DNA of 64,000 nt from Candidatus Bathyarchaeum sp. (GTDB lineage Archaea > Thermoproteota > Bathyarchaeia > Bathyarchaeales > Bathyarchaeaceae), in the NCBI GenBank assembly GCA_026014565.1, contig JAOZIB010000018.1:64444-128443 (forward strand), written 5' to 3'. This document shows, piece after piece, positions 5,954 to 44,232 of the stretch. The translations under genes were made by a program, and so were the position numbers. The notes beneath the pieces were generated by a model. It was not told the origin of the DNA. It searched no databases and saw only the letters and a program-made list of their open reading frames with translations. Numbering within the stretch: the stretch's first letter is position 1; each line of letters begins with the position of its first letter.

Positions 5954-5975
5954 GTGGGCCTGGAGAGATTTGAAC
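5954..5975. repeat. att direct repeat (tRNA-proximal copy)
   Basis: Identical 22-mer to 3239-3260. Covers the acceptor 3' strand and the T-arm 3' half of tRNA-Ile. Confidence 0.75.
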
Positions 5976-6029
5976 TCTCGACCTTTCGGTTATCAGCCGA
6001 ACGCTCCAGCCGTACTGAGCTACAAGCCC
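5955..6029 (-). tRNA. tRNA-Ile (anticodon GAU)
   Basis: Reverse complement folds as GGGCTTG TA GCTC AGTACGGCTG GAGC G TTCGG CTGATAA CCGAA AGGTC GAGAG TTCAAAT CTCTC CAGGCCC A. All stems pair. CCA is not encoded. Confidence 0.9.
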
Positions 6030-7647: not shown

Positions 7648-7892
7648 TTTACATCACACAAGTTTGTCCAACAAGGAGTCTGACAATACGTGAACATTTT
7701 AGTTTCGGAAAGGAAGGTGCTCATGTATGCATTACACTCCTCGCAACAACCTAATGTCGGAGGCATATATCAATATATATACTTTTTTCAAGACAAAAAA
7801 CATTAATTTAATGACAAAAATCGTCGGCAAAAAACTAAAAAGTAGAAACAGCCGCTATCCTTTAATCTCTAAATTGCATCAGTCATTAACGC

Positions 7893-7998
7893 GGGCCCGT
7901 AGCCTAGTTTGGATAAGGCGTCGAGTCACCATAAAATGTGGTGATGCGCAAGCCTTCGGAGCCGAAGACCCAGGGTTCAAATCCCTGCGGGTCCGCCA
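7893..7998 (+). tRNA. tRNA-Arg (anticodon UCG) with a 28-nt intron at position 29/30; CCA encoded
   Basis: After removing 7924-7951: GGGCCCG TA GCCT AGTTTGGATA AGGC G TCGGC CTTCGGA GCCGA AGACC CAGGG TTCAAAT CCCTG CGGGTCC G CCA. All stems pair, U33 is present, and the discriminator is G. Confidence 0.85.
7924..7951 (+). other. tRNA intron (non-canonical position, inside the 5' strand of the anticodon stem)
   Basis: agtcaccataaaatgtggtgatgcgcaa contains the internal hairpin TCACCA-TAAAATG-TGGTGA. Its removal is the only way to restore a 5-bp anticodon stem TCGGC/GCCGA. Confidence 0.75.
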
Positions 7999-20720: not shown

Positions 20721-21185
20721 CTAGAACTGTTTTGGAATGTCCTGGCGCTCCATTATGTATCCGCAGTAATGGCATCGAAGGCGCAAGGGTTCTTCAGCAT
20801 CCACATAAAAGGTAGATTTTACGGGTTCTTTACTGTTGGAAATGCACGCTGGATTTGCGCACTTGACGGCTTCCCGTATTACGCTGGGTAGTTTTACTAG
20901 TTGCTTATCCACAACCGTGTAGTTTCGGATAATGTTAATGCTCGCATGGGGCGCCAACAAGGCAATTTTGTCTACTTCGTGGGTTTTGAGTTCTCTTCCT
21001 TCGATTTTGACCATGTCTTTCAAACCAAAAGTTTTGCTGGGAACATTAATGCCCACAGTTACAACACATTTTACAGGATCTGTGATTCCCAAAATTTTCA
21101 GAACCTCTAAGGCATGCCCAGCACTAATGTGGTCGATTACGGTGCCGTCTTTGATTTTGGATACACGCAAAGTCGTTTCAGACAA
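20721..21185 (-). CDS. pyrI: Aspartate carbamoyltransferase regulatory subunit
   Basis: 154 aa. IKDGTVIDHISAGHALEVLKILGI plus a C-terminal Zn domain C.NP.CI...RCHYCG. Confidence 0.9.
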   Translation of the reverse strand: MSETTLRVSKIKDGTVIDHISAGHALEVLKILGITDPVKCVVTVGINVPSKTFGLKDMVKIEGRELKTHEVDKIALLAPHASINIIRNYTVVDKQLVKLPSVIREAVKCANPACISNSKEPVKSTFYVDAEEPLRLRCHYCGYIMERQDIPKQF

Positions 21186-21252
21186 ACTAACCGCCCCAAG
21201 ATACAGTATACCACATGAAGTTAAGAATTTATTTATAGATACTGCTGAAGGG

Positions 21253-28312: not shown

Positions 28313-29236
<924 letters not shown>

Positions 29237-32456: not shown

Positions 32457-33506
32457 TTAAATTCTTAAACTGCTGTATTTACTAAGAAGAGTCTTCACAG
32501 GAGCTTTTGCAAGCAAAGAATATTCTGTTGTGCAATTCATCAAACAGGGACTGCATTTCAAGGCCACAGTTTTCTTAAGCTCTTTCATCCGTTTGCTTTT
32601 CAGCAGGTCAACCATAGAATGCTCAAGCAAAGAACCCACACAATTTTCTGGTATGCGAGTGAGTCCAGGACACAAAAACAGTTTCCCTTCAGTGTTTACC
32701 GCCAAATACAAGGTGCCAGCGTCACAAAGTTTTGGAACAGTTCCAGTGATGTAATCAGGAATGTGACTCAAAAAATAGTAAGACTGGGAAAGTTTGGTGC
32801 TATACTTTGATTTCATTTCCAAAATTTGCTCCATAACACCTTCAACGGCATCTTGAGGAATAGCCCAAGAATCAGAACCAATAACGGGTTGAACAAAAAA
32901 GTAGTCTGCCCCGAAGTTTGTTACAGTTTCAAACACTTCCTGCAGTTGATGAAAATTGTGTTTGTTCAAAACAAAGTTAACACCAATGGCACAGTTACGA
33001 GGTTTGGTTTGTGCCAAAATCTTTAATCCCCGAGCCGCCCCCTCAAACGCTCCTTTTTTTCCACGTACTTTGTCGTGAATTTGTGATAACCCATCAAAAG
33101 AGATAGAAATAGACTGAAACAAGTTAACCAGTTTTTTTGCCCGCTCTTTAGTGATCAAAGTTCCATTTGTACTCAAAGAAGCAACCAACCCGTTTTCTGT
33201 GGCGTATTGTGCAATGTCTTCGAGGTCGGGTCTGAGTAATGCTTCTCCACCAGTTATGCCAATTGACATGACATCTGCAGAAACTAAATTGTCAATGACC
33301 AGTTTTGCTTGCTCAAGGGTCAGGTCGTTGCCTAATTTTTTTCGGTAAAAGTCTTGGCGGTCACAAAAAAAACAGTTCAAATTGCACTTGTAAGTTACAT
33401 CCCACGCAACAAACAAAGGCGAAGGCACACCTAACTTAATTTTTGAATAAAGCCGTAACGTGCGCATCAAAGGCATGTTCAGTTTAAGGGGATTTACGTT
33501 CACCAA
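32457..33506 (-). CDS. Radical SAM protein with SPASM-type C-terminal Cys cluster
   Basis: CNLNCFFC (CxxxCxxC), a GGEALL glycine motif, and the C-terminal CDAG...LCPG...CSPCLMNC. Confidence 0.8.
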   Translation of the reverse strand: MVNVNPLKLNMPLMRTLRLYSKIKLGVPSPLFVAWDVTYKCNLNCFFCDRQDFYRKKLGNDLTLEQAKLVIDNLVSADVMSIGITGGEALLRPDLEDIAQYATENGLVASLSTNGTLITKERAKKLVNLFQSISISFDGLSQIHDKVRGKKGAFEGAARGLKILAQTKPRNCAIGVNFVLNKHNFHQLQEVFETVTNFGADYFFVQPVIGSDSWAIPQDAVEGVMEQILEMKSKYSTKLSQSYYFLSHIPDYITGTVPKLCDAGTLYLAVNTEGKLFLCPGLTRIPENCVGSLLEHSMVDLLKSKRMKELKKTVALKCSPCLMNCTTEYSLLAKAPVKTLLSKYSSLRI

Positions 33507-33521
33507 ACTGTAGCACCTCCG

Positions 33522-34613
33522 TTATTGCATGGCTCCATTGTTTGCACATATATCGCAAATCGTTTTTTTGTTTCCAGAAATTCCCCGAGCAACCCTTTCC
33601 CGTGAAGCCTGATAAGCCCGATTATTCCAAACTGCAGAAAATCCTTCTTCAAAGGCGTTTCCAAATTTCCATTTTTCTCCGTAAACGTTACAGCAAGGGA
33701 AAACGTTCCCATCCCAGTTTATCACAGAACGCGTCCACAACGACGAACAATCATTACTTAGAGCTTTTTTGCGTTGTTTGGAAGCTGCGCTGTATGCAGA
33801 ATAACGTTCATCAGTGGGTAACCATTCTTTCACGTTTTCAAACTGAGCCTTAGCATCCAAAAAGAATCGCTGGCTCATGTCACAAAGAAGTTTTGCAAAT
33901 TCTATGTAATCAACGCCAACCTCTTTGGCCAGTTGTTCTGCTTTGGAAATTTCTTTTTCTGTGAATCGGGTAACAAAATATTTCCACTGCACCAACGGTT
34001 TTTGAAAATTCAAAGCCCGTTTTTGTTTGATTACCTGTTTTAGGTTAGAAAACACGGTGGCAAAATTGTTTCCTCGTTGATAAGTCTCAACAGTTTCCTG
34101 ACTGGCCCCATCCAAAGAAACCATCAACAGGTTTAACCCAGACCGTAACAACTCATTGCAAATTTTGTCATCAAAAACGTTCAGGTTCGTGCTTGTGGTC
34201 ACCAAAATGTTGTGGTCTTTTGCGTACCGGACCATCCGGAAAAAATCTTTGTTCAGAAAGGGTTCACCCCAGTTGTATAACTCAACAAATATCAGGTAAT
34301 CCCCAAGTTCGTCAATGATTTTTTTAAAGTTTTCAAAACTAAGAAACCCTTGGGGCAAATCTGTTTTTTCTTGACCAGTTGGGCACAATGCACAACGTAA
34401 AGGGCAAACGTTTCCAGTTTCAATAGTCAAGTGATACGGGAACCCAGCAACAACTGATGGCTTCAAAAAACGATGCTGAAGCTCAACCAAAATAAAGTTA
34501 AGAATCGCTTTTGGTTTAGTTAAAAACCCAATCAAATCTCGAGGCTGACCCTTAATGAAAGAAAAAAACTGGCTGAACTCGTTTTGACCAAGCCTCAATT
34601 CACGGGTACTCAT
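33522..34613 (-). CDS. Radical SAM protein with SPASM-type C-terminal Cys cluster
   Basis: CPLRCALC (CxxxCxxC), NWGEPFL, and the C-terminal WDGNVFPCCNVY...CDICANNG. Confidence 0.8.
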   Translation of the reverse strand: MSTRELRLGQNEFSQFFSFIKGQPRDLIGFLTKPKAILNFILVELQHRFLKPSVVAGFPYHLTIETGNVCPLRCALCPTGQEKTDLPQGFLSFENFKKIIDELGDYLIFVELYNWGEPFLNKDFFRMVRYAKDHNILVTTSTNLNVFDDKICNELLRSGLNLLMVSLDGASQETVETYQRGNNFATVFSNLKQVIKQKRALNFQKPLVQWKYFVTRFTEKEISKAEQLAKEVGVDYIEFAKLLCDMSQRFFLDAKAQFENVKEWLPTDERYSAYSAASKQRKKALSNDCSSLWTRSVINWDGNVFPCCNVYGEKWKFGNAFEEGFSAVWNNRAYQASRERVARGISGNKKTICDICANNGAMQ

Positions 34614-34750: not shown

Positions 34751-36952
34751 CTACAGTCCAGTTCGGTATCGGTTTGCGAGTTCTTCGCGTTTGCCTTTGT
34801 TCCATCCGCTGACTGCTTGATAGTATCCAGTTACTCGTGACCACCATTCCACAGAGTTAGAATTGCAGTTAGGACAGGTGTCACGCATTGGGGAGGTGAC
34901 TTTTCCACAGTTACCACAGACAGTGAGGTCTTTGGTGTAGGCAAAGTATCCAATGTTGCTTTGAGTGGTGATTCGTTTTGTCATACTGTATAGGGCTTCG
35001 GGGTCGGGGTCGGCGTCGCCAAGCCAAACATGGAGCATGTTTCCACCGTTGAGCAGTGGGAAGAACTTTTGCTCAATGTTTATTCTGTCAAACAAGCCCA
35101 TCCGTGCGCCGACATCAACATGGGTTCCATTAGTGTAGTAGACAGGAACGTCTTTCTTGTGGTTATTTAGCAAGAATCTTGCTTGTCCCACATCACCTTT
35201 GACCAGTTTTTCAGCATTACCTCGATATTTGTCAGTGATTAGGTCAGATATGGCAAAGCGTTGGGCAGTAGATTCTGCAGGAGTACGCGCCAAGGCAATC
35301 TTGTAGCCACTTTGTTCTTCAAGGATTTTCTTGTATTTTTGCATCTCCAGAATCAATTTGATGAGAATCTTGACGCCTTCTGTGTTCTCATGAAGTTGGT
35401 AACCAGTATGATACTGAGCCATCTCGTTACCACCCACAAGACCAATAGTAAACGTTAGGGCATCAAAGTCAACTGCAGTTGTGCCTTTTTCTCCGGTTCT
35501 TGGATCGAGCGGTCGTTGAGTAGCGAAAGGTATACGGTGGTTCTTAACGGCAAGGTCCATCCATTTCTTCTTCGCTTTGAAAACGTCCAGAGCAGAATCC
35601 ATTAATCTGCGGGCTTCTTCAAAGAGAACTTCGTCCTCTCCGTTTGCTTTGTAGGCCATTCGTGGAAGGTTCAAGCTGGATACTTGCCAGCTGCCCATGG
35701 TGAAGTGTTTTCCGCCCTCAAAGTTGAGTTTCTCGTAAAAGTCTTGGCTATCTTCGGGGGTTTCAACGAAACAGTAAGCACAGCACTGGTAACAGGAAAC
35801 TCCCTTACCATAACCACGATAATCAGGCATCAGGTTATCAAAGTAAGGCAAACCAAATTTGCCAACAACCTTGTGAACATCCAGCCAAACATCGTCGTAT
35901 TCGGGCTTGAAGAACTCTGGACTCAGTGAGTTTTCTAGTTTAGGAAAGTTGAAAGGCTTGCCCCAGTAGTCACCTTTGCCTGCAACATCGTAGAGGGCAC
36001 GGAACATCATGCGGACTTCGTCTTCGTAGTTGCCGTAAACGTCGGGTCCGACGTGTCCATTCTTTACGATGGGAACGTTCTTCCACAGGTCAGGAACACC
36101 CGGTTGGACCTGAATGTTACTGAAAACTAGTTGACCGCCCCTAGCAACGTATGCCTGGGTGTATTCAAAGAACATCATCTGCATGAGTTGGCGGGTTCGT
36201 TCGTAGCTTAGTCCTCGGAAGTAAGGAGCCAAGAATATAAGGAAGTTGTAGAAGCCTTCTCCGCCTGCAAAGTTTGTTTGGGCAGAAGCCAAAATTTTTG
36301 CAGTATGCAAGATTGCAACTTCAGGGTGCTTTGCAGGTCCGGCGATACTTGTTCTTGTTCCTAGACCGTCGGGCATTAAGCCATAGTAGAAGAAGTAACG
36401 AAGGTCCCAGTCTTGACAGAAAGGTCGGGTACCAAAGTATTCCAAGTCGTGAATGTGTAAATCACCTGATAGGTGGGCGTCAGCAATATGGGGAGGCATC
36501 AATAGAAGGTATTCTTCGCCGGAGACCCAGTCTGCTTTTCGTTTGTGGGCAGTTTCTGGGTTAGGTTGAAGGTTTGCGTTTTCTTTTGCTTTGAAGCCTT
36601 GTCCCATGTCCATCAAATAGGCGTTATAAACGGGGGCACCAACTCGGGTCAAGATGTTTCGGTAAAGTGCAAACTGGGGTTTTTCTGAAACCTTGGATAA
36701 CAAAACATTGTTTACTAGTTCTCGAATCAAAGGACCGCTAATGAACTTGAGATTCAAATCAAAAACTTTGGTTTCAACCTCAGCGGCAACTAGTTCTGCG
36801 TCCTTTTGGCTGATTGCTGACATGTCGTAGAATTCTTCTGCCAGTTTAGTTTCAGTCATTAACTGTTCGACGATTTTTTGTTTGCTCCAAGGAACAATAA
36901 AGCCGTCTGTTCCTCTGACCATTGGTCTAACGTTGTGTAACATTTCAGTCAT
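34751..36952 (-). CDS. nrdD: Anaerobic ribonucleoside-triphosphate reductase (class III)
   Basis: 733 aa. N-terminal ATP-cone-like region, a C-terminal Zn ribbon CGNCG...CPNC, and the glycyl-radical motif SRVTGYYQAVSGWNKGKREE. Confidence 0.9.
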   Translation of the reverse strand: MTEMLHNVRPMVRGTDGFIVPWSKQKIVEQLMTETKLAEEFYDMSAISQKDAELVAAEVETKVFDLNLKFISGPLIRELVNNVLLSKVSEKPQFALYRNILTRVGAPVYNAYLMDMGQGFKAKENANLQPNPETAHKRKADWVSGEEYLLLMPPHIADAHLSGDLHIHDLEYFGTRPFCQDWDLRYFFYYGLMPDGLGTRTSIAGPAKHPEVAILHTAKILASAQTNFAGGEGFYNFLIFLAPYFRGLSYERTRQLMQMMFFEYTQAYVARGGQLVFSNIQVQPGVPDLWKNVPIVKNGHVGPDVYGNYEDEVRMMFRALYDVAGKGDYWGKPFNFPKLENSLSPEFFKPEYDDVWLDVHKVVGKFGLPYFDNLMPDYRGYGKGVSCYQCCAYCFVETPEDSQDFYEKLNFEGGKHFTMGSWQVSSLNLPRMAYKANGEDEVLFEEARRLMDSALDVFKAKKKWMDLAVKNHRIPFATQRPLDPRTGEKGTTAVDFDALTFTIGLVGGNEMAQYHTGYQLHENTEGVKILIKLILEMQKYKKILEEQSGYKIALARTPAESTAQRFAISDLITDKYRGNAEKLVKGDVGQARFLLNNHKKDVPVYYTNGTHVDVGARMGLFDRINIEQKFFPLLNGGNMLHVWLGDADPDPEALYSMTKRITTQSNIGYFAYTKDLTVCGNCGKVTSPMRDTCPNCNSNSVEWWSRVTGYYQAVSGWNKGKREELANRYRTGL

Positions 36953-37258
36953 TCACATTCCCTCAAATATTTTTGAAATATCAGATTTGATTACGCCATT
37001 ATTTTCGAATATTTGGCTATCTGTAAATACGTCTCCATTAACTTCCAGAGCGGGCGCGGACATTACGACAAAATTTCGCATAACTAGGTCGGTCATTACG
37101 TCTGAGTCTTCTAGGTTTTTTTCTTCAAAATTCGTGTTTTTATTTTTTAACCATTTTTTCAGCATGTCACATCGAGGGCATCCACTGGTTGTGTAAACCA
37201 CTACGCCGTTTGTGGGTGGATGCGCAGGAGGACTGCTAAGTTCGTTTGTAAAGCCCAT
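36953..37258 (-). CDS. Glutaredoxin/NrdH-like thiol-disulfide protein
   Basis: VVVYTTSGCPRCDMLKKWL is a CPxC thioredoxin-fold motif. Its stop abuts the nrdD start. Confidence 0.75.
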   Translation of the reverse strand: MGFTNELSSPPAHPPTNGVVVYTTSGCPRCDMLKKWLKNKNTNFEEKNLEDSDVMTDLVMRNFVVMSAPALEVNGDVFTDSQIFENNGVIKSDISKIFEGM

Positions 37259-37420
37259 GAAAAATTACCTCTTTAGATGTTTTTACTTGTGAGATAAAAG
37301 AGTTAGGGCTGACAAAGTATATTTAATTTTTTAGTGTTAATGGTATAAAATTTTGTATAAGCATCCAACTAAATTAACACTTAGGTACTATTTCAGCCCA
37401 AACTAGAACATAAAATATTG

Positions 37421-37433
37421 ACAGGGTTTTGCT
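37421..37433. promoter_or_regulatory. Copy 1 of a repeated ACAGGGTTTT(T)GCT motif in the nrdH-nrdD upstream region
   Basis: acagggttttgct; a second copy acagggtttttgct lies at 37519-37532. Confidence 0.3.
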
Positions 37434-37518
37434 GTAGAATTATTTTCTATTTTATATAGGGGTCTAGCCAAAACAGCAATCCAACATAAAATAAAGAGAA
37501 TAAACCCAGAAAAATAGA

Positions 37519-37532
37519 ACAGGGTTTTTGCT
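37519..37532. promoter_or_regulatory. Copy 2 of the ACAGGGTTTT(T)GCT motif, overlapping the stop codon of the NrdD-like gene
   Basis: acagggtttttgct; a one-base T insertion relative to copy 1. Confidence 0.3.
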
Positions 37533-39753
37533 ACACGCGACTGAAGGATTGAAGCATGTTAACAGAGCCACATGAAGGACATTTTTCTAGTTTTCCGTAG
37601 AAAATCTGGCGACAAACTGCACAGTATGCTATGTTACGGTTGAAAACATGTAACCCAACTTTTGAGGAACCAACGATGTCACGGGTTACAGCCAGTAAAT
37701 CGTCAGATTTTTGGGGCTCATCCGCAAGGGGGATAACGGCTAAGTGTCCGCCTGGAGTTAAGCTGTGGAATTGTTCTTCTACTTTGATTCTTTCTTTCCA
37801 AAAAGTAGGAACGTCCAAAGGCAACGCCACCAAATCGGTATAGAAGGGCTTTTCTTTGGTTCCTTTTGTGTGAACAGTTCCCCAACCATATTTTTCTGCA
37901 TCCAGTGATGCTAACCGCTTTGCAGCATAACCAGCAGGCACCATTGCCAAGGCAACTCGTGTTTCCGGCTTTTTGGAGTGTTTTTCTACGTCTTCAGAAA
38001 GATATGTTACAATCTGTTTAGCAAAATCCAAGGTTTCTCCTTCTTGTTTAAGGGGCTTATCAAAAAAGGCTTGAATAGTTTCATTTAAACCCACAAAACT
38101 GACTAACCGAGCGGCATTTTCAATTCTGAAATACTGGTCACCTTCAGTTTTTTGCATCAAAAAGGGTAACATATGTTCCCGTTCCCGCTGCTTTATTGTC
38201 TGATACTTCATTTCCAAAGCTTGCAACGCAAGCTCAAGTTGGTCATCTAGTAATTTGAAAAAGGCTTTTTCCTTACCTTTTGCTTCATACATGATCCGCG
38301 GCAAATTGATTATGACGCTGTCGATGCTTCCTGTTTGCAGGGTGTCTAGTTCCCAATCTTCTCGCCAATTTGCGGCAAGCCTAAAACTTGAGGATGTGTA
38401 TGAGGCACATATTTGTTCAGGATAACATAGATTAGCAAAATATGGCAGGCCGTTTTCTGCAAGTTTGTGGGCATCATAAAGTAAGGGGGTACACTCAGCA
38501 TTTCTAAGAACTTCAGGGCGTATTTTGATTATCAGGCGCGGGTTTAAAACGGGTTTGTAGGCGTCATCGTGAAGGAAAACTTCAAAAATAAGGGAGGCTA
38601 AGCGTCTTGCTTCTTCTGCAAAGTCTGCGTAACATCCAACTGTTTTGCCTTCGGGTCCGATGGCGTCTTTATCTTCTAGAAATTGTGGAATCGAGAGTTC
38701 TATGCCTAACGAGGCCCCAATTGAGCTACCGTTTAAAAGGGGTTGATTAAGGTTAGAAATGAAAAGGCGCAAACCTTCCCGTATTCGCTCTTCTGAAAGG
38801 TTTTGAGTAAAAGGCGCCAAGAAAATGTTAAAGAAATCAAGGGATTGTTCGCCTGAGGCTTCTGTAGAAGCAATTTTTAGAATGTTAGAAGCGGTAAGCA
38901 AAGCAGCTTCAAGACTTTTTGGAGGAAGATATGTGGGTTGATTAAGGTTTGTTGCACCATGGTTAAGTCCATTCTGGAAAAAGAATCGCAAATCGTGCAT
39001 GAACTGATCAGGTTTTAAAACCCAAGTTCCCAAATTTTTAAGATGCAACCCCCCAGACAAATGAGCGTCTGCAACTTCTCGGGGCAAAACGTTCAGTAAT
39101 GTGTATTCTTCCATTACTGCGTCTGCTGCGGCTTTGTGGATGGCTTCAACGCTTTGTTTGGTGGTGCTGGTTGATTCGATAAGTTGATTAACGTCAAAAA
39201 CAGGCAGTCCAAGCCGGGTGAGTTTGTGGCGGTATTCTTCTAAGCCTTTTTCCACCAAAATGGCGTTGACCATTTCTCGGATTAGGGGCGCGGTTAAGTA
39301 TTTTGTTTTAAATTCTAACAGCCGTTTTTCTGTTTCTCGAGCAATTTTTTGGGCCTGAAAAACCGGAACGTTTGCCTCTTTTACAAGGGCATCAGCGATT
39401 TTGTTTCGGTCAAATTCTTCCATGGCGAGACGGGAAGTTCGTACTAGAATTTTTTTTCGTTGTAGAAACTGTTGTTGGATGTCTTCGGTGAATTGTATCA
39501 TGGTTTTGCCTAGTTCGGTGAGTCGGTATTCTTTGTTGTCTACATCGGGTTCTATTAGGTCTGCATTCAGCAGGTACTTAAGGTGGTATGCGAATCTGCC
39601 AGCATCTCTGCTGGGATTGAGTTTTAGTACCTTCATTAGATCAGTGTAAGATTGTGGACCTTTGTTTACTAAAGTCATCAGCAGTTGCATACGCAAAGAA
39701 GAAGAAGCCGCCTTCAGAACTTTCAAACCCGATTTTCGCCGACGTTTAGGCAT
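37531..39753 (-). CDS. wHTH + ATP-cone + NrdD-like protein lacking the glycyl-radical C-terminus
   Basis: 740 aa. N-terminal ArsR-like wHTH (RFAYHLKYLLNADLIEP...YRLTELG), then an ATP-cone (KILVRTSRLAMEEFDRNKIADAL...). The body is colinear with the adjacent NrdD (ADAHLSGGLHLKNL, NIFLAPF, INLPRIMYEA, Zn ribbon CAVC...CPSC). It terminates at ...SFSRV*. Confidence 0.8.
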   Translation of the reverse strand: MPKRRRKSGLKVLKAASSSLRMQLLMTLVNKGPQSYTDLMKVLKLNPSRDAGRFAYHLKYLLNADLIEPDVDNKEYRLTELGKTMIQFTEDIQQQFLQRKKILVRTSRLAMEEFDRNKIADALVKEANVPVFQAQKIARETEKRLLEFKTKYLTAPLIREMVNAILVEKGLEEYRHKLTRLGLPVFDVNQLIESTSTTKQSVEAIHKAAADAVMEEYTLLNVLPREVADAHLSGGLHLKNLGTWVLKPDQFMHDLRFFFQNGLNHGATNLNQPTYLPPKSLEAALLTASNILKIASTEASGEQSLDFFNIFLAPFTQNLSEERIREGLRLFISNLNQPLLNGSSIGASLGIELSIPQFLEDKDAIGPEGKTVGCYADFAEEARRLASLIFEVFLHDDAYKPVLNPRLIIKIRPEVLRNAECTPLLYDAHKLAENGLPYFANLCYPEQICASYTSSSFRLAANWREDWELDTLQTGSIDSVIINLPRIMYEAKGKEKAFFKLLDDQLELALQALEMKYQTIKQREREHMLPFLMQKTEGDQYFRIENAARLVSFVGLNETIQAFFDKPLKQEGETLDFAKQIVTYLSEDVEKHSKKPETRVALAMVPAGYAAKRLASLDAEKYGWGTVHTKGTKEKPFYTDLVALPLDVPTFWKERIKVEEQFHSLTPGGHLAVIPLADEPQKSDDLLAVTRDIVGSSKVGLHVFNRNIAYCAVCRQIFYGKLEKCPSCGSVNMLQSFSRV

Positions 39754-40148
39754 TCAATTTCACCAGTATAGAGTGTTACAACAATCTAGTTTAAAAAATT
39801 AGAGTATAATCCAACAATTTGTAACAGAAAAATCCGACAAAAATGTGTGTTCTGAGTCCAGAACAGCAAAAAATAAACAAATTTGAGTTAGTCAAGAAAG
39901 TTTGACTAAAAACAAGCAGATTATGCTGTTAGTTTGTCAAGAAATCTTGAGAAATAGGCTTTTATCAACAAATAAGCTCAAAATAATACACGCAGGGGAA
40001 CATGCATGCATAATGCTACAAGAAAAATCTGCAGTTTAGGGAGTTTGTCTCTTGTAGCTACCCTGCTTTTTTTCACAATACTAAATGAAAGCAACGTGCC
40101 TTCACCAAAAATCACAGAAAACCCATACAAACACATAAGTCAGAGAAA

Positions 40149-40922: not shown

Positions 40923-41628
40923 GGGGGGTGAGTTTTATTATGTCGGGGACTTGGCCACCTTTTCCCACAATTTCACGATACAAAATGAAAACACCGTGAA
41001 CACCCTCAATGCTCAAAGCTACGTTTACGCCTTTTTTGATGGTGGATTCTACGTCATCTCCAGATATCAGGTTTGCAACAGCAGTAGCAGCTGCATCTGC
41101 CAATCCGGCATTAACAGCAAAAACGGTTACTGCATCAGCGTCGCCAAAACTGAAAGCATGACTGAACTTGCCCGAACTGGTTGCCACCCCCACGGGGAAC
41201 TGTTTGAGTCTAAAGCCCATTTCTTTAGAAAGGGGTTCGTGTCCTGCTGCAAAACCCACATCAATTAGCTGGTTTGACACTGCGTAGGCTTCGCCGCCAT
41301 CTTCTACTACAGCGACTTTGCATCCACAATCAACCATATCCTTTACTGCTAAATCAGCAATAACTCCTGCAACCGCAGCCATTGGTCCCACTTTGGCTTT
41401 TTCTGCGGCTTGTGCCATTAAAAGGACAACTTCAGGACATTCTGTTACAGGGACAGGAGCAAGAGAAAAAAGAAAACGGGAATTTTTTTTGATGTAATCT
41501 TCAAGCAACTGCAGATTACGTTTGATTGAAGTTTTTGCGATTTCGATTCCGGCTTTTTTGTCTGAAACTATTGTGCAGTCTGATTCTTTGTAGCGAAAAG
41601 CCTGTTTGAAGAGTTTTTTATTTGTCAT
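40912..41628 (-). CDS. UPF0280 / COG2122 (ApbE-like) protein associated with sulfide-dependent Cys/Hcy biosynthesis
   Basis: 238 aa. KVGPMAAVAGVIADLAVKDMV...VVEDGGE matches the family signature. Overlaps the upstream NIL-ferredoxin gene by 4 nt. Confidence 0.7.
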   Translation of the reverse strand: MTNKKLFKQAFRYKESDCTIVSDKKAGIEIAKTSIKRNLQLLEDYIKKNSRFLFSLAPVPVTECPEVVLLMAQAAEKAKVGPMAAVAGVIADLAVKDMVDCGCKVAVVEDGGEAYAVSNQLIDVGFAAGHEPLSKEMGFRLKQFPVGVATSSGKFSHAFSFGDADAVTVFAVNAGLADAAATAVANLISGDDVESTIKKGVNVALSIEGVHGVFILYREIVGKGGQVPDIIKLTPPSN

Positions 41629-42038
41629 TTTTTGGTGTTTCGGTGCTGTTCAACTAAAGTAATGGCTCGGGCGGGACATGCATCTACACACAAGCCACAG
41701 GGGTTGCCGATGCAGGTTTTTTCGTTGAACACTACTGAATAGTCTTTGTCGTAAGAGATGGCATCTACAGGGCACAGCGCGTAGCATGCGCCGCAGTCAA
41801 TGCATTTGTCAGAGTCCACTTCGATTAGTTTGGGAAACTTTACAATCACACCTTTGTCTTGAAAGGCTTTGACGATCTTTTGAACGTGGACCTTTGGGAC
41901 TTCTATGAGTATGTCGCCGCCGGAAGAGTTCACGGTAGCGGTTACGATTCTCATGGGAATTCCAAGGTCCAAGATTACCTGGGAAGTTATTGGGTCTTCA
42001 ACGTTTTCTTCTGAAAATCTTAACAAGATTCGATCCAT
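41625..42038 (-). CDS. NIL domain + 2x[4Fe-4S] ferredoxin protein (MA1822-like)
   Basis: N-terminal NIL-like domain, then CIDCGACYALCP and CGLCVDACP clusters. Confidence 0.8.
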   Translation of the reverse strand: MDRILLRFSEENVEDPITSQVILDLGIPMRIVTATVNSSGGDILIEVPKVHVQKIVKAFQDKGVIVKFPKLIEVDSDKCIDCGACYALCPVDAISYDKDYSVVFNEKTCIGNPCGLCVDACPARAITLVEQHRNTKK

Positions 42039-42044
42039 TTTGTT

Positions 42045-43553
42045 TCACCTTCCTCTTAGTTTTGCAATGTCTTCTGTTGATATCAATCCCACAACCTTGT
42101 TTTGGCGATCCAAAACAGGCAACGCACTGATATGATGCTGCGCCATGGTTCTGGAAGCAGCTTCCACGGTTTCTTCAAGGGTTGTTGTGTATACTTTTTT
42201 GGTGATGACTTCTTCTAGCTTTGTTTTGCCTTCCGCAACAGCACGAGTCAAGTCCCAAGAAGTTACAATTCCTTGGATTTCGTTGGTTTTATCCACCACA
42301 ACCACATGGTTAACTGATTTGCTGATTATTCTCTGGGCAACTGTTGTGATGTCTTCCTTTACTGTGCAGGTAACGGCGTCGTGGGTTACATTGCTGACAA
42401 AGGCCACTTGACTGGTTTGGTGCATTGGATTGCAAACTGAACCAGTAGGCAAGGTTTCAACAGGTACCGACAAGTAAAACTCACCATTTTCTATCCATGT
42501 TTTCAGGGTTTGAGCGATTTTTCTCGCGGTTTTTAGGCTGGATAGGCTACTGACTTTGACTTTGCGGTCATTTATTGTTACGTGACCAGATTTCAAGGCA
42601 GCATAACTGACCTGTCCAAGTTTGGGTCGTCCTCGGCGGGGAACTCCGTAGTCGACTATGTCGGTTAGTATTTCGTCATCACGCAGTGCAGTCTTTTTGG
42701 CTAAGCCTTCGTTAAGGATGGGGATTGGAATTCCCATACCCACATACATGCTGGTGCCATACTCGGTAAAGGCGCCTCCGCGGATGAATTCGGGGCTCAT
42801 TTGTTTGCAGTCTCCGCGAACCATCAAGGTGCCAAACCTGTTTGTGGGGTCGTGCTGGGTGCCTTCTCCAATAACGTAACCTTGTCCGCCACCAAGGAAT
42901 ATTCTTGTGCCGATTCCGATGGTTTCGTAGTCGGGGTCGTTCATTAAGGGGTTGAGACATCCTGCACCTGAGTAGGTTGCGTTTCTATGTTTGGGCAACA
43001 GTTTACCCATGTAAGTGTAAATTATCTCGTCCCGACTGTTAGTGGCGCAGACGTATCGTTGGTAGCAGTTGCGGAAATTCAGCAAATAGAACTGGTTTAG
43101 GTCGTCTTTAGTTATGGTTGTATCCAGTTTAGTTCGGGGATAGCAATCTGTTCCGTATGAAGTGGCTCGGACTTCAATTTCTCTGCCTGCTATTAGGTCT
43201 TCTATTACATGTCCGCCTCCGTACTCAAAGGAGTTGGTTTCGGACATTTGAGTAGCGCCAATGAATAGGTCAACAGCGGCGCCTGTGTGGCTGACTTCAA
43301 CGTCGTTTAGCCAAGCGCGCTGAATTTTTATGGGTGGGTCTGCGTGCCCAAGATTTATTACTGCTCCTGAAGAACACATCGCGCCGAAAGTTCCAGTTGT
43401 GACTACGTCTACTTCTTTGTAGGCGACTTCTATGCCGCTACTTTCCACGAGTTTCTTCATTTCTTCTGCGGTCAGGACCTGAACGTCGCCAGATTTGATT
43501 TTCTGGTTGATTTCAGCAATTGACCGTCCGTTTTGTTTTTGTTTGGATGACAT
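42045..43553 (-). CDS. Homocysteine biosynthesis protein, COG1900 (DUF39) domain + two CBS domains (MA1821-like)
   Basis: COG1900-type core followed by the C-terminal CBS pair (VNHVVVVDKTNEIQGIVTSWD; ISALPVLDRQNKVVGLISTED). ATG at 43553 (MSSKQKQNG) is preferred. Confidence 0.8.
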   Translation of the reverse strand: MSSKQKQNGRSIAEINQKIKSGDVQVLTAEEMKKLVESSGIEVAYKEVDVVTTGTFGAMCSSGAVINLGHADPPIKIQRAWLNDVEVSHTGAAVDLFIGATQMSETNSFEYGGGHVIEDLIAGREIEVRATSYGTDCYPRTKLDTTITKDDLNQFYLLNFRNCYQRYVCATNSRDEIIYTYMGKLLPKHRNATYSGAGCLNPLMNDPDYETIGIGTRIFLGGGQGYVIGEGTQHDPTNRFGTLMVRGDCKQMSPEFIRGGAFTEYGTSMYVGMGIPIPILNEGLAKKTALRDDEILTDIVDYGVPRRGRPKLGQVSYAALKSGHVTINDRKVKVSSLSSLKTARKIAQTLKTWIENGEFYLSVPVETLPTGSVCNPMHQTSQVAFVSNVTHDAVTCTVKEDITTVAQRIISKSVNHVVVVDKTNEIQGIVTSWDLTRAVAEGKTKLEEVITKKVYTTTLEETVEAASRTMAQHHISALPVLDRQNKVVGLISTEDIAKLRGR

Positions 43554-43656
43554 TTTTTTCAGTCTCCTACCCTGTCGCAGGGTTGATGAACATAGCAACG
43601 TCATTACTATTTTAATATTTTACTGAAAAAAATATTCCAAAAAGAATATTAGAGGG

Positions 43657-44232
43657 GTGAACAAAAGTCGAATCATGTTACCCTCCATCGAAGAAGTAGC
43701 AAAAAAACGACGAATGATGGGACTAACCCAGCAAAAACTCGCCAGACTAGCAGGAGTAAGCCAATCCCTCATAGCAAAGCTTGAATCCCAAAAAATTGAC
43801 CCCGCCTACACTAAAGTGAAATCTATTTTTGACACTTTAGAAAGGATGCAAACTGAAACAGAAGTTTTGGCCGAAGAAATGCTACACAACAAAGTCATTG
43901 GAATCCAAAAAACCGACCTAGTTTCTAAAGCGGTTCAAACTATGGCAGAGCATGGTTATTCTCAGCTTCCGGTCTTTGATGGAGAACACGCCGTAGGCAG
44001 TATTTCGGAAAAGGCAATAATAGGAAAAGTTTCTGCAGGCAAGGACTTGTCACAGGTATCTAAGCTTTCTGTGGAAAAAGTGATGGAAGAAGCTTTTCCT
44101 CAAGTGGGAGAAGACGCCCCGTTACAGTTGATTTCTAGTTTACTACAGGTTTATCCCGCAGTTTTGATTTTATCCAAAGGAAGAGTTGTCGGAATAGTTA
44201 CCAAAGCGGATTTATTGAAGATGCTTCTATGA
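43657..44232 (+). CDS. XRE-type HTH + CBS-pair transcriptional regulator
   Basis: GLTQQKLARLAGVSQSLIAKLES is an HTH_3 motif. Two CBS motifs follow (YSQLPVFDGEHAVGSISE; VLILSKGRVVGIVTKADL). Divergent from the homocysteine cluster. Confidence 0.8.
   Translation: MNKSRIMLPSIEEVAKKRRMMGLTQQKLARLAGVSQSLIAKLESQKIDPAYTKVKSIFDTLERMQTETEVLAEEMLHNKVIGIQKTDLVSKAVQTMAEHGYSQLPVFDGEHAVGSISEKAIIGKVSAGKDLSQVSKLSVEKVMEEAFPQVGEDAPLQLISSLLQVYPAVLILSKGRVVGIVTKADLLKMLL

Follow-up and report, generated by a model that had tools for sequence, protein, structure and literature searches.

A winged-helix protein built on an inactivated class III ribonucleotide reductase as a candidate regulator of ribonucleotide reductase genes in archaea

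Why should an archaeal gene that encodes most of a class III ribonucleotide reductase (RNR) begin with a DNA-binding fold and stop just short of the radical glycine? The question is raised by a gene at 37531–39753 on the minus strand of a 64,000-nucleotide stretch of Candidatus Bathyarchaeum sp. DNA (contig JAOZIB010000018.1), hereafter the window, which reads from an ATG start to a TAG stop at 37531–37533. A sequence-only reading had described a 740-residue open reading frame (ORF) joining a winged helix-turn-helix (wHTH), an ATP-cone and an NrdD-like body upstream of nrdH-nrdD, and had proposed an RNR-derived, nucleotide-sensing transcription factor analogous to bacterial NrdR. The ORF, its Pfam modules and every peptide quoted in that reading are present in the window, and all computational lines followed here support the proposal: the protein is probably a one-component, RNR-linked transcription factor whose body is a class III RNR that has lost its catalytic function, predicted from its domains to bind DNA and nucleotides.

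Pfam divides the protein into a DUF7347/HTH_45 wHTH (residues 13–93; 13–87 for DUF7347), a PF03477 ATP-cone (104–174) and a PF13597 NRDD domain (198–740), and more than 120 orthologs match it in both length and architecture; we refer to these proteins and their relatives as the family. Pfam, profiles against the Protein Data Bank (PDB), AlphaFold2 and Foldseek together delimit an ArsR/SmtB-like wHTH at residues ~10–98 (39460–39726, minus strand, as are all parts of the gene), with a putative recognition helix ...RDAGRFAYHLKYL..., while PF03477 and conservation delimit an ATP-cone at residues ~102–190 (39184–39450; VRTSR...F..KI...YLTAPLIRE...YRHKLTRLG). There follow an NrdD-type alpha/beta barrel without catalytic residues (37639–39162), defined by PF13597, Foldseek and column comparison, and, from translation and alignment, a Cys4 zinc ribbon (C711, C714, C725 and C728) with a truncated C-terminus ending ...SFSRV (37534–37632). 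The wHTH belongs to the same gene as the rest, as it lies in a single unbroken ORF in all orthologs and in one AlphaFold2 model, so the possibility that it is a separate gene is ruled out. Database entries of 720 residues are short start calls at Met22, within helix 1, and the 21 residues that precede it are conserved in the protein.

The natural reference for this protein is the genuine class III RNR of the same locus, a 733-residue NrdD at 34751–36952 on the minus strand, which scores 513.8 bits against the NCBIfam equivalog TIGR02487 (cutoff 326.35) and covers PF13597 positions 1–560 of 562. Its motifs are complete, with the finger loop YQCCAY, the beta-A cysteine Cys179, the NxN flap ENAN and the radical motif RVTGYY. 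Class III finger loops read MGCR, MCCR or QCCR/A with the catalytic cysteine third, and QCCR/A marks the NrdD3 type (RNR phylogeny paper), to which the neighbour is assigned by its QCCAY loop. The 740-residue protein scores 286.2 bits against TIGR02487, below the cutoff. BLASTP aligns the two proteins from end to end, in keeping with the colinearity that had been claimed, at an identity of 25% that does not fit a close paralog; the 740-residue protein is closer (34–38% identity) to other NrdDs from archaea whose finger loop is the single-cysteine MGCR. The family is therefore old and not a recent duplicate of the adjacent nrdD.

The truncation falls just before the glycyl-radical motif. The 740-residue protein ends CPSCGSVNMLQSFSRV followed by the stop, while the neighbour runs on SRVTGYYQAVSGWNKGKREE, and the BLASTP alignment of the pair closes at SFSRV and the stop against WWSRV followed by TGYYQ..., that is, at the start of the RVxGY glycyl-radical loop. 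The PF13597 match (E 1.9e-79) tells the same story, spanning profile positions 5–539 of 562, and the ~23 missing positions are the glycyl-radical loop. This end is genuine. Contigs from two independent metagenome runs, X1 and X2, cover the stop codon without an indel: contig X1 (2391 nt, depth 26) differs from the window by 1 substitution and 0 gaps, and contig X2 is identical to it over 37419–37791. Furthermore, of the 120 best database homologs (70–100% identity), ~106 (74–100% identity) end in ...SF[ST]R[VILM], and in orthologous genes the TAG of the window is replaced by TAA or TGA. Since stop codons vary among orthologs, read-through or pyrrolysine insertion at the TAG is excluded, and together with the contigs and the ortholog endings this also rules out an assembly error. 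The sequence-only reading had already seen no G-Y radical motif in its translations of the downstream frames and of a TAG read-through. A subgroup of 770 residues (~71% identity) extends further, with FSRVSAKHLPSSLWFPAQRSALSKRVSY homologous to the canonical SRVTGYYQAVSGWNKGKREELANRYR, and there an alanine replaces the radical glycine (RVSAKH). Some lineages have thus lost the radical glycine through substitution, and others because the protein was truncated.

The glycine is not the only loss. We compared columns in an alignment of 99 sequences, with motif definitions from the RNR phylogeny paper, and counted residues over 143 wHTH-bearing members (65 representatives after clustering at 50%, and 78 species genomes). 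In the 740-residue protein the finger loop is SSSFRL, whose phenylalanine aligns with the cysteine of GCRSFL in structure 9d3x and of GCR in a subgroup of the family. The beta-A site, whose cysteine is conserved in 92.6% of class III sequences (RNR phylogeny paper), reads KPDQFMH, with Gln250 for the cysteine, where the neighbour has RPFCQDW. The NxN flap is deleted, while the neighbour keeps N125-A126-N127, and the HD, RGGQ, PAES and YTN motifs are altered or lost. The protein thus lacks four of the features by which a catalytic NrdD is defined: the radical glycine, the finger cysteine, the beta-A cysteine and the NxN flap. The suspicion that the body is non-catalytic, first raised by the missing glycine, is in this way strengthened by three further losses.

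The same pattern holds throughout the family. The beta-A cysteine occurs in 0 of the 143 members and in 12 of 12 canonical NrdDs of the same alignment, the N-A-N flap columns are gapped in at least 89% of members, the finger-loop cysteine is kept in 20 of 143 and a glycine stands at the radical column in only 14 of 143. No member has two or more of the three radical residues, and truncation like that of the window protein is seen in 22 of the 143. Decay of the radical machinery reads as stepwise, from glycine to alanine and then to truncation, with cysteines patchily lost. What is retained is the ATP-cone residues, the NLPR, GxNE and R..A..D motifs and the four zinc-site cysteines; the last, said to survive by the sequence-only reading, are invariant in the family alignment and present in at least 91% of members. 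The NrdD-type fold also persists in the AlphaFold2 model and its Foldseek matches.

The full-length AlphaFold2 model, built from a 76-sequence family alignment, has a mean predicted local distance difference test (pLDDT) score of 88.8 and a predicted template modelling score of 0.79, and its top Foldseek matches in the PDB are only class III RNRs (9d3x, 8p2s, 4col and 1hk8; E 9e-29 to 1e-19). The N-terminal 100 residues modelled alone reach a pLDDT of 93.5 and fold as four helices (residues 3–16, 19–31, 36–42 and 47–63), a beta-hairpin wing (67–70 and 75–78) and a final helix (80–99). Foldseek places this model closest to HlyU, ArsR, CzrA, CadC and SmtB (template modelling scores 0.64–0.78), and a profile of the family wHTH independently reaches HlyU (best, E 4e-6), CadC, ArsR and CzrA among PDB sequences. 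Similarly, the isolated domain scores 31.1 bits against DUF7347 (gathering threshold 27.6), DUF7347 is matched by 30 of 30 sampled members and HTH_5 or HTH_20 by 26–27 of the 30, and NCBI names some members 'ArsR family transcriptional regulator'. The N-terminal domain, predicted earlier as an ArsR-like wHTH of ~95 residues, is an ArsR/SmtB-type winged helix, on which model, fold search, profile and Pfam agree, and as such it would be expected to bind DNA.

The ATP-cone is the best-conserved region of the family, with many invariant residues: mean identity to distant members is 61% over the cone, 37% over the wHTH and 28–32% over the barrel and zinc ribbon. PF03477 is matched at 26.5 bits in the full protein (gathering threshold 25.8) and at 32.5 bits by the isolated cone, and by 19 of 19 diverse members (best E 1.2e-10). 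In the AlphaFold2 model a linker of 3–5 residues joins the cone to wHTH helix 5. In working NrdDs the cone acts through the NxN flap, which lies over the substrate and passes on the signal from the cone, and through the glycyl-radical domain (P. copri NrdD paper). Because flap and radical domain are gone and the cone is tethered to wHTH helix 5, the output of nucleotide binding would be a repositioning of the DNA-binding domains. Whether ATP and dATP are the ligands is, in our estimate, an evenly balanced question.

The gene has been maintained by selection. Against Ca. Bathyarchaeum tardum the ratio of nonsynonymous to synonymous substitution rates (dN/dS) is 0.06 for the family gene and 0.03 for the adjacent nrdD, and the family gene is thus under strong purifying selection. 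Low-depth contigs that are 100% identical to the window inside the family gene and inside grx/nrdD, from runs that we guess to be RNA, give weak evidence of transcription.

The family is also widespread. When the GTDB species, each represented by a single genome, were scanned with the N-terminal alignment, a relative was encoded in at least 588 matching stretches, of which the 80 best come without exception from Bathyarchaeia; the closest among the matches listed is Ca. Bathyarchaeum tardum M17C-01 (94% over the N-terminal part, 89% over the whole protein), and the source of the window is therefore closely related to that organism. An exhaustive profile-free search of 1.8 billion cluster representatives recovered 2283 relatives, many of them diverged wHTH-bearing forms, and 4123 proteins lie at E ≤ 1e-30 around a Nitrosotenuis member. 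That member belongs to a branch of ~700 residues in ammonia-oxidising archaea (Ca. Nitrosotenuis cloacae, N. chungbukensis, N. aquarius and Nitrosotenuis sp. DW1), whose proteins are named 'anaerobic ribonucleoside-triphosphate reductase' in some database entries and 'ArsR family transcriptional regulator' in others; the Nitrosotenuis member scores 77.6 bits against TIGR02487. Nitrosotenuis are aerobic nitrifiers. Class III RNRs are oxygen-sensitive (RNR phylogeny paper). A working class III RNR in Nitrosotenuis is therefore physiologically implausible. Among genuine archaeal NrdD homologs, many are 1000–1700 residues long (P0160, P0166, P0172, P0176, P0202, P0212 and others) and match the query in 2–4 separate stretches, which suggests inteins; such a length excess was seen in no wHTH-bearing dead copy.

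What connects the protein with RNRs, beyond its own ancestry, is its company. In the window the family gene lies upstream of grx and nrdD, with grx between the two RNR-type genes. This gene, at 36953–37258 on the minus strand, encodes a glutaredoxin/NrdH-like redoxin of 101 residues with a CPRC motif (PF00462, E 7.7e-10; conserved synteny), which also matches TIGR02196 and TIGR02194 below their cutoffs and is likely the reductant partner of the adjacent NrdD3-type reductase. The order family gene, grx, NrdD3 recurs in the two assemblies of B. tardum and in some dozen loci besides; grx and NrdD3 stand downstream of the family gene in L001–L009, L012, L037, L047 and L075. Five other loci (L014, L017, L018, L023 and L051) have a different NrdD, 39–45% identical to that of the window, directly downstream and without grx. 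In Nitrosotenuis sp. DW1, N. aquarius and related metagenome-assembled genomes and metagenome contigs, the gene 213–226 bp downstream on the same strand is instead a class II nrdJ, which scores 736 bits against TIGR02504 (NrdJ_Z); one related copy (L160 6317–9397) carries an intein, with a Pfam Intein_splicing match. Nothing argues more strongly that the business of this protein is RNR than its linkage, in two lineages, to three different types of the enzyme.

A candidate target site emerged when the 272 bp that separate the family gene from grx were compared by phylogenetic footprinting. One block, cTTATACArAATTTTATACc-N7-CTAAAAAATTAAATA, is conserved far above its surroundings. Its first part is a pseudo-palindrome with the 17-bp consensus TATACArAATTTTATAC, a candidate operator that we call the nrd box (TTATACAAAATTTTATACC, 37342–37360, minus strand), and 7 nt downstream of it stands the probable transcription factor B recognition element and TATA box (BRE/TATA) of the grx-nrdD operon (CTAAAAAATTAAATATA, 37318–37334, minus strand), ~60 nt upstream of the grx ATG; this element is conserved right after the box, and its function is predicted from that position. 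Box and BRE/TATA-like element thus sit ~60–90 nt before grx. The position of the box is conserved in fifteen numbered loci (L001–L007, L009, L010, L015, L018, L023, L037, L051 and L075), and the box with its TATA also precedes the other NrdD type in distant Bathyarchaeia lineages.

The box is also specific to this place. It occurs once in the window, a position weight matrix finds 22 matches in 817 kb of loci with the strong ones all at the junction of family gene and nrdD, and an exact search for box plus TATA in a metagenome collection returned 72 loci, in 57 of which the box is flanked by the family gene, by grx/nrdD or by both; of the remainder, ~6 seem to be truncated copies of this promoter and ~9 to be chance matches. 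The box is almost exclusive to the family gene/nrdD junction. We would put at about even chances that the family protein itself binds it.

Several further features of these intergenic regions were recorded. In L014 and L017 the box takes a variant form, the palindrome TTATACAAAAAAATTGTATAA; in CP070730.1 (L027 8169–8187) box and TATA follow the family gene and the next ~100 nt are masked as N. The spacer in the window holds other conserved blocks at 37436–37464 and ~37372–37383, GACCCCTATATAAAATAGAAAATAATTCT (a second TATA-like element) and AAGTGTTAATTT, and an element resembling GTGTTAAT, 10–14 nt upstream of the box, recurs in the distant loci L018 and L051. No riboswitch or known RNA was found in the conserved spacer by Rfam at gathering score. 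In some metagenome contigs among L091 (with two boxes), L114, L130 and L137 the 3' end of the family gene (residues ~703–740) is duplicated together with the box, and others have a ~700-bp insertion between gene and box, which suggests local rearrangement at this junction.

Upstream of the family gene the only strongly conserved block in the window, L001, L004, L005 and L006 is CTAATTTTTTAAACTAG (39786–39802, minus strand), which recurs in more distant loci; lying ~35–50 bp before the ATG and followed by a GGTG Shine-Dalgarno sequence, it is the probable BRE/TATA of the family gene. Two 20-nt direct repeats 45 nt apart (39886–39905 and 39931–39950, ~130–190 bp upstream of the gene; minus-strand TCAAACTTTCTTGACTAACT and TCAAGATTTCTTGACAAACT, the second with the perfect palindrome TCAAGAttTCTTGA) were considered as an operator and rejected, as they are conserved only in the closest relative (L001 and L003) and not in L004–L006, and the window shows no enrichment of the pattern. 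We set them aside as seemingly lineage-specific.

From these observations we favour, a shade less firmly than the identity of the protein as a regulator, an origin in which a glycyl-radical RNR was exapted once, long ago, into a transcription factor that senses deoxyribonucleoside and ribonucleoside triphosphates (dNTP/NTP) and controls the RNR genes of its host, whatever their class. The protein would dimerise as NrdD and/or ArsR proteins do, and two wHTH domains of the dimer would sit on TATACArAATTTTATAC directly upstream of the grx-nrdD BRE/TATA. Exchange of ATP for dATP at the cone would shift the arrangement of domains or the oligomeric state and thereby DNA binding, and a remnant nucleotide site in the barrel might contribute to sensing. 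The outcome would be RNR transcription coupled to the dNTP/NTP pool. By analogy with NrdR, dATP-dependent repression of the RNR operon may be expected; a box just upstream of the BRE would be compatible with activation as well.

A number of observations weigh against this proposal. The family gene is not always beside nrdD, as an RNR gene adjoins it in only some 25% of 82 Bathyarchaeia loci. Its most frequent neighbour there is a convergent pyrB (51 of 81 loci), whose promoter region lacks the box, and none was present at the pyrB or pyrI promoters. The box is absent from the family gene's own promoter, where close relatives have only a TTATAC half-site, and is not recognisable in the Nitrosotenuis spacer between family gene and nrdJ, which instead has the conserved blocks CGAAATTCG, GGTGTAAA and GTTGAGCTAAA; where present, it could be the site of another factor. 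With respect to sensing, the family ATP-cone profile reaches no solved ATP-cone at E<1, so the homology of the cone rests on Pfam and fold. Its hairpin reads VRTSR, against VxKRDG in E. coli NrdA, which we take to be the canonical phosphate-binding residues; the VRTSR variant is also present in genuine archaeal NrdDs. A barrel of ~500 residues under selection is hard to account for if the cone alone senses. Finally, both DNA binding and nucleotide sensing are properties that we infer for the protein.

Most Bathyarchaeia loci in fact share another frame, consisting of a divergent tRNA-Pro, the family gene, a convergent pyrB and pyrI, of which the window retains pyrB (28316–29236, plus strand) and pyrI (20724–21191, minus strand). 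The grx-nrdD pair appears to have been inserted into this frame in some lineages. The tRNA-Pro lies ~100–180 bp upstream of the family gene (L019 5501–5575, L024 5811–5888, L031 5813–5887, L058 5845–5922), and tRNA-like sequence is visible at the same side of the gene in many other Bathyarchaeia loci. No other RNR gene was found among the neighbours tested of members without nrdD (a kinase-TPR protein, a topoisomerase, a sugar isomerase and others). In three nrdD-less loci (L011 2902–3159, L013 5201–5455, L016 8536–8790) there is a conserved Cys-rich ORF of 85 residues (CxxC...CxxC) without a Pfam match, with box-like sites (GTACA..TTTAAACA and the palindrome TATACAGAAATTTGTATA) between it and the family gene; this ORF may be another target of the same regulator. 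In Nitrosotenuis the family gene is immediately preceded, on its own strand, by a conserved 53-residue zinc-ribbon ORF with the pattern CGKCG...CPSCG (L155 ~7776–7940, L156 4776–4937, L158 3774–3935).

The location of most Bathyarchaeia members in the tRNA-Pro/pyrB/pyrI neighbourhood, away from RNR genes, speaks for a different kind of regulator: a DNA-binding regulator or chromatin protein that is neither RNR-specific nor nucleotide-sensing, in which the NrdD body would be a dimerisation scaffold and adjacency to RNR genes a matter of history. The non-canonical ATP-cone, and the missing box at the gene's own promoter and in the spacer of the ammonia oxidisers, point the same way. Against such a protein, adjacency to NrdD3 with grx, to another NrdD and to NrdJ in two lineages is hard to see as chance, the module conserved most strongly is the ATP-cone, and the box is essentially restricted to the nrdD junction. 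We consider this explanation unlikely, yet more probable than the other rivals.

Less probable again, with perhaps a slim chance of being correct, is that the protein is a non-catalytic partner of a real reductase, a pseudo-subunit that heterodimerises with NrdD or titrates it, the wHTH having a secondary role. Co-location with nrdD in the window and retention of the barrel fold, the helical dimer region and the zinc site would suit such a partner. The identity of 25% to the adjacent NrdD suits it poorly, and so does the wHTH, which every member retains. In most Bathyarchaeia loci the ~6 kb that follow the family gene contain no NrdD, and in Nitrosotenuis the partner RNR is the class II NrdJ, of another architecture and in aerobes where a class III enzyme would be useless.

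That the protein is still an enzyme, either an RNR with its radical supplied in trans (for example by a glycyl-radical 'spare part' protein) or some other nucleotide-modifying activity combined with DNA binding, strikes us as highly improbable. The NrdD fold and the nucleotide-proximal motifs NLPR, GxNE and R..A..D do persist, and single radical residues linger in the minorities of members counted above. These residues never occur in pairs; moreover, the beta-A cysteine is lost in 143 of 143 members, the substrate flap is deleted, and the family is present in obligate aerobes. No activase gene adjoins either: no NrdG was found next to the family gene, and the radical S-adenosylmethionine (SAM) genes at 32457–34613 are SPASM-type and maturase-like and do not look like NrdG. 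An assembly or frameshift artefact, or a decaying nrdD pseudogene, as the truncation viewed in isolation might suggest, is refuted by the independent contigs, the identical ortholog ends with different stops, the dN/dS of 0.06 and a wide and ancient family.

The remaining features of the window are incidental to the family gene. The nrdD gene is followed directly by two maturase-like genes of the radical SAM/SPASM type (32457–33506 and 33522–34613, minus strand); the pair is absent from the orthologous B. tardum locus (L001) and looks like an insertion. Elsewhere in the window stands a homocysteine-biosynthesis-type pair (41625–43604, minus strand, and 43657–44232, plus strand), COG1900/HcyBio with CBS domains and a NIL-ferredoxin, beside an HTH_3-CBS regulator, in an arrangement syntenic with the same B. 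tardum locus. The sole Rfam match at gathering score in the whole window is a tRNA gene at 5955–6029 on the minus strand.

If the protein is indeed an RNR-linked transcription factor, it would be the NrdR equivalent of Bathyarchaeia and of ammonia-oxidising Nitrososphaerota, and the 'anaerobic RNR' annotated in the genomes of aerobic nitrifiers would be a regulator. Control of RNR is central to genome integrity, and the family offers a concrete and testable candidate for an archaeal regulator; we know of no RNR-specific archaeal regulator, and none appeared in the literature searched. Its members span two globally abundant groups, the Bathyarchaeia of sediments and the ammonia-oxidising Nitrosotenuis, with orthologs in cultivated or enriched representatives (Ca. 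Bathyarchaeum tardum and Nitrosotenuis spp.). Databases carry them under conflicting automatic names only, and systematic mis-annotation as 'anaerobic ribonucleoside-triphosphate reductase', including in obligate aerobes, would distort inferences about anaerobic DNA synthesis. The literature yielded no description of the family, of DUF7347 or of an archaeal RNR regulator of this kind, in agreement with the earlier impression that the architecture is undescribed as a regulator.

How does the proposed regulator compare with known systems? To the class III NrdDs of P. copri (8p23), S. thermophilus (9d3x), T. maritima (4coi) and phage T4 (1hk8) it is clearly homologous in sequence and structure; like them it has an ATP-cone, a 10-stranded alpha/beta barrel and a Cys4 zinc site, and it differs from them in having no glycyl-radical loop, thiyl-radical cysteine, beta-A cysteine or NxN flap, in its extra wHTH and in its occurrence in aerobes. 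With the ArsR/SmtB proteins HlyU, CadC, CzrA and ArsR it shares the fold of its N-terminal ~95 residues and detectable sequence similarity; those proteins are metal or redox sensors of ~100–120 residues, whereas here the effector module is an ATP-cone with an RNR body. We found no precedent for a glycyl-radical enzyme as the sensor of a transcription factor and, to our knowledge, this would be the first such body known in that role. A parallel from another pathway is NrtR, the Nudix-related regulator of NAD metabolism, in which the fold of a pathway enzyme was recruited as the sensor of a wHTH regulator and mis-annotated as the enzyme; fold and pathway differ, and the donor in our family is a glycyl-radical enzyme.

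The closest functional comparison is with NrdR, the RNR-specific bacterial repressor composed of a zinc ribbon and an ATP-cone, which acts at a box in RNR promoters and is rare in archaea (NrdR paper), in line with the sequence-only reading. The family protein is not a member of NrdR: it matches no NrdR model in Pfam or NCBIfam, and its only zinc ribbon is the C-terminal structural site of NrdD. The whole proteins are not homologous, the family protein having 740 residues with an inactivated NrdD body of ~540 residues and NrdR ~150; DNA binding would use the N-terminal ArsR-type wHTH in the one and uses a zinc ribbon in the other; and the family has a single box of another sequence where NrdR has two. 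The likeness lies in the design. In both an ATP-cone is the presumed sensor, the gene is often found beside RNR operons (nrdRJ in Streptomyces; nrdD or nrdJ for the family), and a palindrome-like box at RNR promoters accompanies a proposed coupling of RNR transcription to dATP/ATP.

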